A DNA stretch of 64,000 nt, taken from IMG/VR virus record IMGVR_UViG_3300044946_000428, positions 4,777-68,776 of that record; one strand, given 5' to 3'. Source of the DNA: a virus. The notes beneath the pieces were generated by a model, which worked only from the letters and a program-made list of their open reading frames with translations, was not told the DNA's origin and searched no databases. Positions 4,728 through 16,068 of the stretch are shown piece after piece; within the stretch, counting starts at the first letter, position 1, and each line of letters opens with the position of its first letter. Both the position numbers and the translations under genes were made by a program.

Positions 4728-5210
4728 TCACTGCTCGCTGTCTTCCTCGCTGATGCCGCCGAGCTCGTCGATCTCCCCGCCGCTGAGGCTCGACAAGGCC
4801 GAGACTCGCCCCTTAGCCGTTCCGTCGAGTGACGCCAACGTGGACTGCACGCGTGCCACGGTCCGCGCATCGAAGTCCGCGAGTGCGCGCCGCTTGTGGA
4901 ACGCCAGCCGGCCACGTCTGGTCAACGCCGCGCGGTCCACGACATCCAGCCCGCCACCGATCCTCCGGTACGGGTTGGTGCCGCCGTTCCGCCCACGCGA
5001 CCAGAGCGGCTTCCAGCAGTAGACGCAGTTCTCGAAGTGCACGTCGGTGTGGTGCGGGACGTGGTAGCCGCGGATCCAGCACATGGGGCGCCAAAGGTGG
5101 GTTTGGCCGTGGTCGCTGAAGTGCCACCAGATCCGGTGGAGCCGTCGTCCGGGTTGCAGGCTTTGAGTAATCCAACTGGTGCCAAGACGATCCCGAGTAC
5201 TGCCGCTCAC
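4728..5210 (-). CDS. Hypothetical protein with a His/Cys cluster (CxxRGYH...CxxC)
   Basis: GTG start coupled to the upstream TGA; CWIRGYH..H...CVYC. Confidence 0.55.
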   Translation of the reverse strand: MSGSTRDRLGTSWITQSLQPGRRLHRIWWHFSDHGQTHLWRPMCWIRGYHVPHHTDVHFENCVYCWKPLWSRGRNGGTNPYRRIGGGLDVVDRAALTRRGRLAFHKRRALADFDARTVARVQSTLASLDGTAKGRVSALSSLSGGEIDELGGISEEDSEQ

Positions 5211-10188: not shown

Positions 10189-10358
10189 GGCATCCTCCTT
10201 GGTCCGCGCGAGAGGTGGGCTAGCTCACCTGGGTGATGGAACTGACGCTGTTCGGGGTACTGCACCAGTGCTGTTCGGCGATACCGTGTTGGTCTAGCAG
10301 GAGCGCGCGACGTTCTTGCAGGTGCAACGGCAGAACTACCTAGAGGAGTCTCAGATCC

Positions 10359-11114
10359 GTGACCGACGACACGCCGCTCTACCAGCAGATCGCCAACGAC
10401 CTTCGAAGAGGCGTCGGCGAGGGGAGATTCGATGCCAATGAAGGCAGGCTCCCCGGCGAGAAGGCTCTGGCCGAGCAATGGAACACGTCCACGGCAACCT
10501 CGAGCAAGGCTTTGAAGCTGCTCGAGCGTGAGGGTGTGATCGAGATCCGCAGGGGCGTCGGTGCTTTCACCCGACGCCGCAAGCCGATCATCCGCGATGC
10601 GAACGGCCGACTGTCCCGCGAGCAGTGGGGCGCGGGTAAGGCGATCTGGCAGTTCGACCTCGGCGACCACTACCCGGTGCCCGAGACTGCGGTCTACCGG
10701 GACGGCGAGGAGAAGGCGCCCAAGGTGCCGGACTTCGTACGAGCCACGCTTCAAGCCGATCGGTACCTGATCCGCGACCGCAGGTACACGGTCGAGGGCT
10801 GGCCGATCCAGGTTGCGACCTCGTTCTTCGATGCGGCAATTGCCGAGGGGACCGAGATCGCAAATCGCGACTCGGGTCCGGGTGGCGTGTACGCACGGCT
10901 CGCCGAGCTCGGGCATGAGCCGGTGGCTTTCCTTGAGCAGGTACGCAGCCGACTTCCGCTCGACGATGAGGCGAAGCGTCTGCGGATCACAACGGACAAG
11001 CCCGTTTCGGAGATCGTTCGCCAGGCGAAGACGGCTGCTGGCCGGGTCGTCGAGGTCAACGTCATGCTGTTGCTGGGCGACGCTTACGTGCTCCAATACG
11101 CCTTCTCCTCCTAA
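10359..11114 (+). CDS. GntR-family regulator with a UTRA domain (KorSA/TraR-like)
   Basis: PLYQQIANDLR....LPGEKALAEQW.TS..T...AL..L..EG.I..RRG.G; C-terminal UTRA-like domain. Confidence 0.92.
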   Translation: MTDDTPLYQQIANDLRRGVGEGRFDANEGRLPGEKALAEQWNTSTATSSKALKLLEREGVIEIRRGVGAFTRRRKPIIRDANGRLSREQWGAGKAIWQFDLGDHYPVPETAVYRDGEEKAPKVPDFVRATLQADRYLIRDRRYTVEGWPIQVATSFFDAAIAEGTEIANRDSGPGGVYARLAELGHEPVAFLEQVRSRLPLDDEAKRLRITTDKPVSEIVRQAKTAAGRVVEVNVMLLLGDAYVLQYAFSS

Positions 11115-11127
11115 CTCGCTCGCTTCC

Positions 11128-11161
11128 AAGCCCCCAACCGAGTCTCGGTTGGGGGCTTTTT
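11128..11161 (+). terminator. Intrinsic terminator after the GntR gene
   Basis: 15-bp stem AAGCCCCCAACCGAG/CTCGGTTGGGGGCTT followed by a T tract. Confidence 0.85.
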
Positions 11162-11180
11162 GATTACATGGACCATCCTA

Positions 11181-11233
11181 GAACCAGCTGGTTCCTCTTG
11201 ACAACCATATGGAGCACGCGCTGTACTAGCTAT
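11181..11233 (+). promoter_or_regulatory. Promoter of the rightward early operon with a palindromic operator; probably leaderless
   Basis: GAACCAGCTGGTTC palindrome 11181-11194; TTGACA 11198-11203; TGTACT 18 nt later, ending 7 nt before ATG 11234; no SD. Confidence 0.55.
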
Positions 11234-11485
11234 ATGACGACAGCGACCGACACCGCGGCGCCGGCACAGACCGACGAGTTCCTCACCGTCGGCGAGGTCG
11301 CCAAGCTGCTCCGGACCACCCCGATGACCATCTACACCGAGATCCACGAAGGGCGACTCGACGCGATCCGCGTCGGGCGCCGGACCTACCGGATCCCCGT
11401 GGAGTCCTACAACGCGTACAAGGAGGCGCAGCGCACCACGCCCCGCGCCGAGACCGGCCAGCTCGTCCCGGCCACCGCCGCGTAA
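11234..11485 (+). CDS. xis: Excisionase/MerR-like HTH DNA-binding protein
   Basis: EFLTVGEVAKLLR..PMTIY..I.EG.L.AIRVGRRTYRIP (HTH_17 excisionase consensus). Confidence 0.85.
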   Translation: MTTATDTAAPAQTDEFLTVGEVAKLLRTTPMTIYTEIHEGRLDAIRVGRRTYRIPVESYNAYKEAQRTTPRAETGQLVPATAA

Positions 11486-11557
11486 CCACAAGCCGCCGGG
11501 CCCCGGCCGCGACCGCACAACGGCCGGGGCCCGGCAACCAGCCAGCACCACCAGCAA

Positions 11558-11630
11558 GCCCTCGCTCCGGGTCGGGGGGCGCCGCGAACCTCCTCCTCGC
11601 GGCTCGGGTTCGAATCCCGAAGAGGGCACC
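11558..11630 (+). ncRNA. tRNA-like element, copy 1
   Basis: GCCCTC/GAGGGC acceptor-like stem plus ACC; T-arm TCGGG-TTCGAAT-CCCGA; middle hairpin GCCGCGA/TCGCGGC with a CCTCC loop. Confidence 0.65.
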
Positions 11631-11661
11631 TTGATCAGTCGGCTCGACGAAGGAGGAAGTC

Positions 11662-11907
11662 ATGCAGGTCTGGATCCTGATGGAAGGCGAGCTGTGCGAG
11701 GGCGGCACCGTCGAGGGCGTTTTCGCTTCCTGCGAGCTGGGCCACGGCGCGTTCGCGGAGCTCGCCATGAAGCTGTGCGGCTGGTCCGGGATCCGGGAGG
11801 CCGACGTGCGTGAGAACGGCGGCCTGTATTTGGAGGGCGGTCAAGTCTGGATCGAGCTGCGGCCGTTCGACGTGGTCGAGCAGTTGGCGATCGCGCCGGC
11901 CGCCTAG
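11662..11907 (+). CDS. Hypothetical protein (81 aa)
   Basis: GAAGGAGG SD; clean ORF. Confidence 0.75.
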   Translation: MQVWILMEGELCEGGTVEGVFASCELGHGAFAELAMKLCGWSGIREADVRENGGLYLEGGQVWIELRPFDVVEQLAIAPAA

Positions 11908-11980
11908 CGCTACCAGCACCATCCCGGGTTCCGGCGGCCATCTCCCCGGCAACCGGCACCCGGGCGCACAGCACCAGCAA

Positions 11981-12055
11981 GCCCTCGCTCCGGGTCGGGG
12001 AGCGCCGCGAACCTCCACTTCGCGGACGTGGGTTCAACTCCCACAGAGGGCACCA
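11981..12055 (+). ncRNA. tRNA-like element, copy 2 (ends ACCA)
   Basis: GCCCTC/GAGGGC plus ACCA; T-arm GTGGG-TTCAACT-CCCAC; CCGCGAA-CCTCCAC-TTCGCGG hairpin; compensatory changes relative to copy 1. Confidence 0.7.
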
Positions 12056-12085
12056 CGACCAGTCACTTCAACGAAGGAGGCAGCA

Positions 12086-12703
12086 ATGCAGTTCGAGCGC
12101 CGCACAATCACCCAGACCATCAAAGTCCCGACGAACACGGGCCGCACGGTCGACGAGCACACGAAGGCGTACCTGAACCGGTCGATGGACGTCATGGACT
12201 CCATGGGCATCGGCATGTGGCCGGCGATCGTGTCCGCGTCACAGTTGGGCGCCGACGACGAACTCCAGGAGATCCTCGGCGACGCCATGGTCGGCGACGA
12301 GTACGAGGACGGCGACGGCTACAGCCGCAACGGTCTGCGGCGCGTTGTGGACGACACGGACATCCCCGAGAAGCTGACCGCGTGGCGGGACGCCGCGGTG
12401 AAGGCGGCGCTTGAGGGCGCCGGACAGGCTGCGCGCCGGTCGGCCTTCACCTCAAGCACGCCGCTAGTCGCAACCGACGAGTGGGGCCGGCCGCGCTGCC
12501 AGCAGGTCGGCGTGTACGCGGACGTGGACGAGTTCTTCCAGTGCGCGATGGTCGCGGACCACGACGGCGACTGCGACCCGCTGCCGATCCAGCCGTCCGC
12601 CGATGAGGCCGAGCGGCTCCTCGCCGACGCGTACGTCACGATCCCGGTCGCGGATGCATCCGGCCTGGCCGCGCAGATGCAGCAGCCGAACAACGAGAAC
12701 TGA
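12086..12703 (+). CDS. Hypothetical protein (205 aa) with a C-terminal C...C..H..C zinc-like motif
   Basis: GAAGGAGG SD; MQFERRTITQ...; PRC...FFQCAMVADHDGDC. Confidence 0.75.
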   Translation: MQFERRTITQTIKVPTNTGRTVDEHTKAYLNRSMDVMDSMGIGMWPAIVSASQLGADDELQEILGDAMVGDEYEDGDGYSRNGLRRVVDDTDIPEKLTAWRDAAVKAALEGAGQAARRSAFTSSTPLVATDEWGRPRCQQVGVYADVDEFFQCAMVADHDGDCDPLPIQPSADEAERLLADAYVTIPVADASGLAAQMQQPNNEN

Positions 12704-12783
12704 CAGCAAGAAAGCCCGGCCGCTGTTGCACCCAGCGGCCGGGCGGTGTCCAGAGCCCCAGCAAGCAGCGAGAGGAACCAGAC

Positions 12784-13212
12784 ATGCAGCAGTCTACGGC
12801 CCGGCGCCGAGGCCATCTGGCGCTCGCCCCGGAACCCGGCGCCGTCGCCGGGATCCCGGTCCCCGGCAACCTGCCGGACGACCCGACCTACGCCTACCGG
12901 CTCGGCCGGATCGCGACGCTCACCGAGACGCTCGACGAGCAGACCCGGGCCGTGGCGAACTTCGACCGGTTCGAGTCGATGTCCTTCGCCGAGATCAGCA
13001 CGCTGATCGAAGTCCTGGGTTGGTTCGCGGACGCCAAGCGCCCGAGCCTGCACCTCGTGGACGAGCAGGGCGACATCGCCCCGATCGTGCAGGCCGCGGT
13101 CTCCGAGTTCCGCCCGGTCGACGAGCCGACCCGCCTGTTCGCCCAGTCCCGGGCCCGGCTGACCACGTTCGTGGAGAGCCACGTCGCGGCCGGTATCGGA
13201 GGGGTGTCGTGA
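12784..13212 (+). CDS. Hypothetical protein (142 aa)
   Basis: GAGAGGA SD; GC3-rich. Confidence 0.7.
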   Translation: MQQSTARRRGHLALAPEPGAVAGIPVPGNLPDDPTYAYRLGRIATLTETLDEQTRAVANFDRFESMSFAEISTLIEVLGWFADAKRPSLHLVDEQGDIAPIVQAAVSEFRPVDEPTRLFAQSRARLTTFVESHVAAGIGGVS

Positions 13213-13382
13213 AGACCGTCCTGCACATCGAACTCGACCTCGCCGGCGACCGTGCCGATGCCGCCGCCCGCGTGGACGCCCTGATCGCGGCGCTGACCGC
13301 GACCGCCCCGGGCCTCGGCGCCCGCATCGAGGCCACGCACGTCGACCGGCTCCGGCCGGTCACCGCGGGAGGCGCCCGATGA
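13209..13382 (+). CDS. Hypothetical protein (57 aa)
   Basis: GTGA coupling; VKTVLHIELDL... Confidence 0.6.
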   Translation: MKTVLHIELDLAGDRADAAARVDALIAALTATAPGLGARIEATHVDRLRPVTAGGAR

Positions 13383-15065: not shown

Positions 15066-15416
15066 ATGTCAAAGAGCGACAAGACCTACGACGTCACCGT
15101 CTACCGCACCGACGGCACCACCACCCGCGAGAACGTCGCCAACGACGAGGCCCGCGAACTTCGGGACGCCGGTGGGCGCGGCCAACCGGCCGGGCCCGAC
15201 ACGAAGGAGAACACGGCCATGGGCATTCTCAAGACCGCCAAGTGGGCGCTGAGCACGAAGGACGAGCGGCGCTTGAGCGAGGTGCGCGAGCATAAGGGCC
15301 GCAAGCCCGCGGGCGGGCGGCGCGACAGGGACGTCGACTACACGAACGGGTTCATCGTCAGCGGCAAGGGCCAGGGCACCTCTTACGTCCTCGCCACGCG
15401 CCGCAACGGACGCTGA
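15066..15416 (+). CDS. Fused ORF: MSKSDK... module reading through a repeat remnant into a 65-aa MGILKT... gene (own start at 15219)
   Basis: Internal GCGGCCAACCGGCC repeat and AAGGAGA SD before ATG 15219. Confidence 0.6.
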   Translation: MSKSDKTYDVTVYRTDGTTTRENVANDEARELRDAGGRGQPAGPDTKENTAMGILKTAKWALSTKDERRLSEVREHKGRKPAGGRRDRDVDYTNGFIVSGKGQGTSYVLATRRNGR

Positions 15417-15517
15417 CCGCCCGGCGGGCCACGATCGCCGGCGGCCCTGAGCTCTCCCCAGGACCGCCGGTCCGCGCGGCCAACCGGCCGGGACCACAAC
15501 TGCACGGAGGGAATCCC

Positions 15518-15703
15518 ATGGGCCTTTTCAGCCGGAACGCCGAGGTCAGCCAGGCGCGCGCCGAGTACCGGGAGGCGAACGCCGCGCAGCAGGAGTACGC
15601 GCGCACCAGCGGCAACCGCGACGAGAACGACGCGACGTACCTCCAGCTCAACGACCGCACGAACGAGACGCTGCACGCACTCAAGGACGCCAAGAAGCGC
15701 TGA
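15518..15703 (+). CDS. Microprotein (61 aa), cassette in the repeat array
   Basis: GGAGGGA SD; MGLFSRN...DAKKR. Confidence 0.75.
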   Translation: MGLFSRNAEVSQARAEYREANAAQQEYARTSGNRDENDATYLQLNDRTNETLHALKDAKKR

Positions 15704-15806
15704 CCGGGCGGGCCGCGCCTGCCGACAGCCCCCGGCTCAGGGGCCTGCCGGTGGGAGCGGCCAACCGGCCACAGCAAAACCTCAGCTCGCAAAGGAGATC
15801 AGCACC

Positions 15807-15974
15807 ATGGCGAAGAAGGAATGGACCGACGCGGAACGCTGGGAGATCGTCAAGGAGTCCATGGACCACTCCCGCTATTACGAGTCCATCGGAGACCGCA
15901 AGAACCGCGACCTGTACAGCGAGAGCGCGAATCGAGTGCTCGACTCCATGGAGAAGGGCCGCGGGAGCAAGTAG
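15807..15974 (+). CDS. Microprotein (55 aa), cassette in the repeat array
   Basis: AAAGGAGA SD; MAKKEWTDAERWEIVKE...GRGSK, translated manually (below the track cutoff). Confidence 0.75.
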   Translation: MAKKEWTDAERWEIVKESMDHSRYYESIGDRKNRDLYSESANRVLDSMEKGRGSK

Positions 15975-16068
15975 CCCGACGGGTCACGCCTGCCGACAGT
16001 CCACAGCTCAGGGGCCTGTCGGCTCGCGCGGCCAACCGGCCGAGACCAATCCGAGAAAGGTAAACACC

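Follow-up and report, generated by a model that had tools for sequence, protein, structure and literature searches.

Uncatalogued tRNA-shaped elements between early genes of temperate actinobacterial phages as candidate RNA-processing signals

In plant mitochondria, t-elements are cleaved by RNase P at the 5' side and by RNase Z at the 3' side, which frees a small stable tRNA-like RNA (Forner et al. 2007, PMC1920247). In the temperate phages P1 and P7, an RNA of ~77 nucleotides (nt), C4, is excised by RNase P from the leader of an operon (Hartmann et al. 1995, as cited in PMC11143913 and PMC5320573), and its loops are described as pairing with the ribosome-binding region of a downstream gene in the same operon. 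Here, we describe two tRNA-shaped elements, copy 1 and copy 2, found in a 64,000-nt stretch (positions 4,777 to 68,776; hereafter, the window) of the virus record IMGVR_UViG_3300044946_000428. This IMG/VR provirus record of 111,156 base pairs (bp) comes from a soil metagenome and has a G+C content of ~69%. The two elements appear to belong to an uncatalogued family of non-decoding tRNA-shaped modules in the rightward early transcript of temperate actinobacterial phages that are known from soil metagenomes only. The reading that we favor, which stands about evenly poised between right and wrong, is that they are t-element-like processing signals for RNase P and RNase Z in an early polycistronic RNA, from which they would release a tRNA-shaped small RNA.

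The minimum-energy fold of each copy (RNAfold) is a four-way junction, i.e., a four-arm cloverleaf (Table 1). In both copies, the acceptor consists of 6 bp, GCCCUC/GAGGGC, and a G.A layer, followed by A73; it pairs positions 11558-11563 with 11622-11627 in copy 1 and 11981-11986 with 12046-12051 in copy 2. A D-like hairpin with 5 bp (11564-11580 and 11987-12003) abuts the acceptor with no 8/9 linker. The anticodon-like hairpin (11581-11603 and 12005-12025) has a 7-bp stem in both copies and a loop of 9 nt in copy 1 (ACCUCCUCC, 11588-11596) and of 7 nt in copy 2 (CCUCCAC, 12012-12018). The variable region is 1-2 nt long, and the T arm (11604-11620 and 12028-12044) has a 5-bp stem, a UUCGAAU or UUCAACU loop, and one unpaired A before the 3' strand of the acceptor. 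The discriminator A11628 of copy 1 is followed by CCU (11629-11631) and A12052 of copy 2 by CCA (12053-12055). Compared with shuffled sequences, the fold energies have z-scores of -2.0 and -3.3. The first-pass annotation of this DNA, a reading of the letters by a model, had placed and described both elements correctly. It had also proposed covariation of the stems between the copies, which is borne out by two compensatory pair changes in the T stem; in the D-like stem the change is one-sided (U.G versus U-A). The first 36 nt of the two copies differ by one base, and their 3' halves diverge. A covariance model built from this pair (R1) finds exactly these two sites in the 111-kb record; weak matches at genome positions 103753 (a tRNA-Gln according to ARAGORN) and 84539 were rejected as members. 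Because R1 also detects diverged copies at the same place in related contigs, the elements lie far beyond what chance would produce.

Contigs from other soil metagenomes were compared with the window over positions 10300-13300. Further related contigs were gathered through homologs of two proteins of 205 and 81 amino acids (aa), encoded next to the elements, and through a Xis profile, and the loci fetched in this way were searched with R1 and a second covariance model, R2. They contain at least 12 further full-size members (in L007, L008, L011, L016, L019/L099, L020, L102, L239, and L240), as well as three reduced copies of 49 nt. None of the family members reaches any Rfam threshold. All copies lie between genes of one direction, on the same coding strand as these, and occupy the first slots behind the GntR-Xis pair. 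A covariance search, as had been proposed from the window alone, does bring up relatives in soil-metagenome contigs. A scan of IMG/VR for the exact pattern of the 5' half returned no match, blastn against cultured phages and plasmids returned nothing relevant, and the Xis profile found no close relative among the GTDB genomes. The Arthrobacter phages Sonali and Mufasa8, which are the nearest cultured relatives, have no match, and the element is absent from 80 metagenome loci with more distant Xis homologs. It is likewise absent where homologs of the 205-aa protein occur in other gene contexts (L103-L110), and the element is therefore tied to the post-xis slot and not to the 205-aa gene.

Each family member, folded singly by minimum energy, adopts the same junction. 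In a 12-member alignment fitted to the model, 94.4% of the cells are standard pairs, and compensatory changes on both sides are seen in 18 of the 23 base pairs and in all four stems. None of 500 shuffles reaches the observed pairing values, and sliding the partners by 1-3 columns lowers pairing to ~45%. The most tightly kept feature is the top half made of acceptor and T arm: G1-C72 is invariant, and the combined stack has 11-13 layers (including a single mismatched layer), reached through 7+5, 6+6, or 5+7 solutions. The tail is always (A/G)C, whereas the bases at 75 and 76 differ among members, and CCA is thus not conserved. Position -1 is unpaired and lies within a G-poor leader, with an A in 14 of 19 family members. 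GG is present in the D-like loop of 12 of the 14 full-size members, and the T loop is UUCRANY-like in 9 of them; in the two members without GG, the T loop is aberrant too. Variation extends to the D-like arm and is greatest in the anticodon-like arm, which is long and different in two members and only a stub in the 49-nt copies; the reduced copies (45-49 nt) retain only the acceptor and the T arm. By this comparative evidence, the fold is under selection. Mini elements that measure 43-61 nt and combine an acceptor stem with a T arm but lack an anticodon arm also occur between genes of unrelated IMG/VR contigs (two copies in L124, and others in L185, L197, and L188/L192/L198) with a G+C content of 51-65%, some of them directly after a TAG stop codon.

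The position relative to the genes is also conserved. Of the 10 members that directly precede a gene, 8 have their discriminator 33-37 nt from the start codon, and the remaining two have spacings of 40 and 42 nt, even though the intervening sequences show no relation from one lineage to another. In three copies of the B type, an extra hairpin intervenes, and the start codon is 74-79 nt away. Copies that follow a gene (B-type and mini) begin 7-13 nt past the upstream stop codon. That codon is a TAG, mostly within UAGCA, in L016 (2384), L007 (2843), L102 (1264), L239 (2756), L240 (2741), L011 (2951), L197, and L124, whereas the B copy of L020 follows a TGA; TAG accounts for only ~30% of the stops in the genome of the window, and the sample is small.

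In the window and in L007, L102, L011, L020, L239, and L240, two elements bracket a single gene, which varies by contig and belongs to the 81-aa family, the MQFERR family, a NUDIX fusion, or another family. Three relatives (X2, X4, and X5, from three runs of three different studies) skip positions 11515-11972 and have a single element, which follows the xis-like gene and precedes the homolog of the 205-aa gene; the extra 424-456 nt of the window, i.e., copy 1 and the 81-aa gene, are therefore an insertion. The 81-aa gene is missing from the closest relatives, and its homologs elsewhere (L239 and L240) are likewise bracketed by tRNA-like elements. These gains and exchanges would suit a role at the DNA level, in which the elements act as portable homology blocks or cassette boundaries for the swapping of small genes, or as att-like targets, and the RNA fold is incidental. 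Such a role would also agree with the near identity of the 5' halves of the two copies next to their diverged 3' halves and with the L008 element, which joins a copy-1-like upstream flank to a copy-2-like downstream flank. However, the compensatory changes in four stems and the kept length of the stack point to a folded single strand, the orientation always matches that of the genes, and the integrase is encoded ~49 kb away. Recombination between repeats can be passive, and here it is more likely a consequence of the presence of the elements. A DNA-level role is, in our estimate, very unlikely.

Several canonical tRNA traits are present, namely, an acceptor stem with a discriminator and a 5-bp T arm with a UUCRANY loop, and it could be asked whether the elements are working tRNAs (for Gly-UCC or of an Arg type) or functionless, decaying tRNA pseudogenes. 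ARAGORN calls copy 2 a tRNA-Gly(tcc) in a shifted register and leaves copy 1 uncalled. CCA is encoded in copy 2, and the acceptor GCCCUCG/CGAGGGC-A is also found in canonical phage tRNA-Arg genes (L160 and L193). However, the Rfam tRNA model (RF00005) gives copy 2 only 24.7 bits, against a gathering threshold of 29, and does not match copy 1 at E up to 10. Neither copy has any Rfam family at gathering score: the best match of copy 1 is to mascRNA/menRNA (RF01684), with 27.8 bits against a threshold of 42.5, and the tymovirus tRNA-like structure (RF00233) yields 25.5 bits, against a gathering threshold of 40. The U8/A9 linker and U33 are missing (copy 2 has C33, and the loop of copy 1 is 9 nt long), the anticodon-like stem is extended to 7 bp, the loop runs from 7 to 13 nt among relatives, and the variable region comprises 0-4 nt. 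Because the loop length varies so widely, the formal anticodon UCC (Gly), to which attention had been drawn initially, has no functional meaning. The bacterial glycine identity set consists of U73, G1-C72, C2-G71, G3-C70, C35, and C36, from which the elements deviate at A73 and C3-G70. With U8/A9, U33, and the arm geometry lost, the elements therefore should be unable to decode; an ordinary tRNA-Gly is ruled out by the Rfam score, the missing U8 and U33, the stem and loop geometry, and A73. The view that these are not normal tRNAs has been upheld by all of these features, and, as judged from the sequences, geometry and identity elements exclude a decoding tRNA, while covariation and the fixed position and spacing across diverged contigs exclude neutral decay. 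Either version of this alternative is thus extremely unlikely. The family probably descends from a canonical phage tRNA, such as a tRNA-Arg with the same acceptor. As a specific ancestor, tRNA-Arg remains a lead only, as this acceptor is shared with Leu, Thr, Phe, and Met tRNAs.

A signal for RNase P and RNase Z had been one of the options offered in the first-pass annotation. The comparative data favor it, as the features that have been kept (the acceptor/T top half, G1-C72, A73-C74, and the unpaired position -1) are the ones that RNase P, RNase Z, and the CCA-adding enzyme recognize; the cleavages themselves are predicted. The recognition part retained would be a ~12-layer acceptor/T stack with G1-C72, A73, and an unpaired position -1, usually completed by an elbow of a GG D-loop and a UUCRANY T-loop. 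Acceptor plus T arm is said to be the minimal substrate of RNase P, a minihelix attributed to work of McClain, Guerrier-Takada and Altman in 1987, and the reduced copies support the RNase P reading because they are essentially such a classical minihelix. A common transcript would fit the arrangement of the locus, in which all copies are intergenic and co-directional with the flanking genes, and no sigma-70-like promoter was found on the plus strand of 10200-13300, an interval that includes both elements.

On the processing reading, host RNase P would cut at G11558 and G11981, and a 3' nuclease would cut after A11628 and A12052: RNase Z where CCA is not encoded and exonucleases where it is. These cuts would detach the upstream regulatory message, which would end in the protective hairpin at 11495-11535, from the downstream gene, and the downstream message would start with a defined leader, ~33 nt long and unstructured, that carries a strong Shine-Dalgarno (SD) sequence. 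Where two elements bracket a gene, that gene would be freed as a monocistronic message. The by-product would be a stable tRNA-shaped RNA of ~72 nt, whose CCUCC-type loop may pair with SD or other G-rich sequences. Several points weigh against this scheme. The T loop is non-canonical in five of the 14 full-size members (CCCACCA, CUCCACA, GGUCAAAG, AUCGAC, and GUCAUG), and the elbow may be recognized less well in these. It could also be that transcription terminates at the hairpin upstream of copy 1; the element would then need a promoter of its own, and none was seen. The covariation counts come from an alignment that was fitted to the model, although the independent single-sequence folds agree with it. 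Finally, a pure processing signal leaves the C-rich, G-free loop unexplained.

This loop has a striking composition. In the 12 short-arm members of the 14, it consists of C (68%), U (18%), A (12%), and G (2%), compared to 55% G in the D-like loops of the same RNAs, and CUCC or CCUCC occurs in the loops of 9 of the 14 full-size members. The CCUCC-type motif resembles the anti-SD sequence of 16S rRNA. The first-pass annotation had pointed out that both loops are complementary to the SD sequence of the next gene, and it had suggested a switch in cis, in which the CCUCC loop would mask GGAGG ~55 nt downstream on the same RNA, with the tRNA-like scaffold only presenting the loop. The C-rich, G-free loop has indeed been kept in 12 of 14 members, G is scarce in the leaders outside the SD sequence, the spacing to the start codon is constant, and copy 1 can form 6 bp with its own SD sequence (duplex energy, -13.0 kcal/mol). 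However, loop and SD sequence do not covary: the duplex with a member's own SD sequence has a mean energy of -9.2 kcal/mol, versus -7.8 kcal/mol for the SD sequences of other members, and the own SD sequence ranks ~4-5 of 14. Any C/U-rich loop fits any strong SD sequence, and 1,215 (for copy 1) and 4,660 (for copy 2) of the 74,088 windows in the genome ranking score lower than the respective cis site. The CCCCCCC and CCACC loops of L007A, L102A, and L240A mismatch GGAGG; L011A and L020A have lost the C-rich loop and yet keep the position; and the B-type copies, 74-79 nt from the start codon, lie behind a hairpin. Simple sequestration also would not require a tRNA scaffold. What remains of the proposed switch is, by the sequence comparison, a generic complementarity, and regulation in cis by sequestration seems quite unlikely. 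A decoy for anticodon nucleases or synthetases, also named in the first-pass annotation, is a purely hypothetical role here.

Alternatively, the excised RNA might act in trans, with its C-rich loop seeding on SD or other G-rich sites of phage or host mRNAs, which would be compatible with the favored processing reading. The composition of the loop has been kept across diverged lineages while its sequence and length (7-13 nt) changed, C-rich loops are a known type of seed in small RNAs (sRNAs) of high-GC Gram-positive bacteria, according to the account of 6C sRNA in PMC6486639, and C4 of P1 and P7 provides a precedent; the tRNA shape would add stability and precise ends. Against such a regulator stand the two members without the loop and the absence of a specific target in the own genome, where the loop finds its best sites on the antisense strand of the element itself and at scattered positions in coding sequence. 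In addition, the C-richness may be partly inherited from a tRNA anticodon loop, such as the CUCCUAA of tRNA-Arg(CCU) in L199. We consider a trans-acting riboregulator unlikely, while keeping it as a tentative second possibility. Much the same holds for a broader, rather speculative scheme of a tRNA-scaffolded riboregulator, in which the element, excised by RNase P and RNase Z, would use its CCUCC loop as an anti-SD seed, in cis or in trans, and so silence host messages or the early gene that is bracketed by it or lies downstream; this would amount to a P1 C4-like immunity control built on a tRNA fold, with the elements also defining a slot for a swappable one-gene cassette. The top own-genome match of the loop, at genome position 109462, was rejected as a target in trans, being a same-sense identity on the opposite strand. 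At 109470-109485 (~104694 in window numbering, outside the window), 16 nt are identical to the anticodon-like arm of copy 2 (CGCCGCGAACCTCCAC) on the sense strand of a minus-strand HTH-like gene; by a rough estimate, such an identity has a chance expectation of a few percent, and, being same-sense, the stretch does not qualify as an antisense target.

The window carries a structural module of the siphovirus type, including a portal-NUDIX fusion, a tail tube protein, a tape measure protein, a lysin, and an integrase, and its nearest cultured relatives are Arthrobacter phages, with a portal identity of only 42-45%. In the early region, a Prim-Pol gene on the minus strand is followed by the GntR/UTRA regulator, a terminator, the xis-like gene, the 81-aa and 205-aa genes, and many small co-directional genes (Table 1). 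Transcription of xis, with a short leader or with none, may be driven by a TTGACA box at 11198-11203.

Table 1. Features in and around the two tRNA-like elements (window coordinates)
Feature	Position	Strand	Description
GntR/UTRA regulator gene	10359-11114		
Intrinsic terminator	11128-11158		Canonical; 14-bp stem and T run, readable in either direction; separates the GntR gene from the xis-like gene
HTH_17 (Xis-like) gene	11234-11485		
Conserved hairpin	11495-11535	+	Folded; 15-bp stem, past the stop codon of the xis-like gene; loop with GCGACCGC, then GGCAACC
Leader	11549-11557	+	Single-stranded, A/C-rich, G-poor (..ACCAGCAA); last base, A, at position -1
tRNA-like element, copy 1	11558-11631	+	Minimum-energy fold; covariance-model match of 99.9 bits
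SD sequence of the 81-aa gene	11649-11656	+	GAAGGAGG; ~20 nt past copy 1
81-aa gene	11662-11907	+	Start at 11662; bracketed by both elements; third-position G+C (GC3), 0.91
Hairpin	11923-11964	+	Past the stop codon of the 81-aa gene; z-score, -3.4
tRNA-like element, copy 2	11981-12055	+	Minimum-energy fold; covariance-model match of 105.8 bits
SD sequence of the 205-aa gene	12073-12080	+	GAAGGAGG; ~20 nt past copy 2
205-aa gene	12086-12703	+	Start at 12086; two-module mosaic

The hairpin ahead of copy 1 probably protects a 3' end or serves as a terminator-like module, and it is separate from the tRNA-like element. Its homologs are found in L007 (2136-2178), L008 (2336-2375), L011 (2310-2350), L016 (2043-2083), L102 (704-746), L240 (2342-2384), and L019 (1818-1857), after the xis-like gene or the next small open reading frame (ORF). 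They share a covarying stem of 13-15 bp, a loop that opens with (C)GCGACCGC, and a 3' flank GGCA(A/U)CC. This hairpin family could represent an I-shaped terminator or attenuator, or a protein-binding site. A second family of intergenic repeats is found at 15125-16048, where four copies, each a GCUC-loop hairpin followed by an invariant GCGGCCAACCGGCC, are interspersed between ORFs of 55-65 aa. Their GGC(C)AACC(G)GCC motif is similar to the sequence that flanks the hairpins beside the tRNA-like elements.

The 81-aa protein has no Pfam match, and for the proteins encoded downstream, Pfam and the protein atlas gave nothing usable as to function. The two modules of the 205-aa protein (residues 1-110 and ~115-205) are separate proteins in relatives, and the N-terminal one is fused to a NUDIX domain in one relative (P0012, L020). 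Where homologs of this N-terminal module occur in L007, L008, and L102, a tRNA-like element lies 33-35 nt ahead. In L019 (2700-2963; the same as the IMG/VR record L099), a HEARO RNA (Rfam RF02033, 98.7 bits) is found ~300 nt downstream of the tRNA-like element. Near the right end of the provirus record, outside the window, ARAGORN reports a tRNA-Gln(ttg) at genome coordinates 103758-103829 and a doubtful 89-nt tRNA-Arg(acg) at 106735-106823.

If the favored reading is correct, phages of high-GC Gram-positive bacteria place tRNA look-alikes as punctuation in their early polycistronic messages, much as mitochondria do, and borrow the essential tRNA-maturation enzymes of the host to set mRNA ends and to uncouple neighboring genes. 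The family offers a compact, covarying RNA motif that is absent from Rfam and a case of a tRNA-shaped RNA with a loop like the anti-SD sequence of 16S rRNA. It also marks a slot past xis that holds one gene of variable identity and in which accessory genes are exchanged. In addition, the tRNA-Gly call that ARAGORN makes on one copy would mislead counts of phage tRNAs and arguments from codon usage.

Among the known systems, the plant mitochondrial t-elements share with the phage family a non-canonical cloverleaf, a well-kept T arm, and a location near or between coding regions, which for t-elements is within longer transcripts, as is presumed for the phage elements. However, t-elements are organellar and their ends coincide with mRNA ends that have been mapped experimentally, whereas the present family belongs to bacteriophages; and the conserved C-rich loop, the fixed 33-37-nt distance to the start codon, and the frequent bracketing of a single gene set the phage family apart. 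The mascRNA and MEN-beta RNAs of MALAT1 and NEAT1 (RF01684) likewise have a tRNA-like fold, in their case within a long transcript, where RNase P makes the upstream 3' end and RNase Z frees the small RNA; they are vertebrate and nuclear, and, as the score of copy 1 indicates, the elements resemble them in shape only. As for canonical phage tRNAs (RF00005), the likeness extends to the acceptor GCCCUC(G), A73, the T arm, and the GG of the D-loop, in contrast to the loss of U8/A9 and U33, the longer anticodon stem, the variable loop length, the shorter variable region, and the non-conserved CCA.

The C4 covariance model has no match at E up to 10 in 11400-12200. C4 is a three-hairpin RNA of Proteobacteria with no T-arm cloverleaf and with specific, covarying pairing, whereas the phage family forms a cloverleaf, shows generic pairing, and comes from Actinobacteria. 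The 6C sRNA of Actinobacteria, in the account of PMC6486639, has in common with the elements the G-free, C-rich hairpin loops and the high-GC Gram-positive setting, and its loops bind mRNAs without a chaperone. It is not tRNA-shaped and combines two C-rich hairpins with a promoter of its own; the elements have one C-rich loop and do not match the Rfam 6C family. Neither an Rfam match nor, in full-text literature searches, a description of the family was found. Thus, tRNA-like processing modules (t-elements and mascRNA) and a phage leader RNA processed by RNase P (C4) are already known kinds. What is new is a full four-arm, covarying, and apparently non-decoding family in temperate actinophages that keeps a G-free, C-rich loop and a fixed spacing to the start codon and that brackets a variable one-gene slot.

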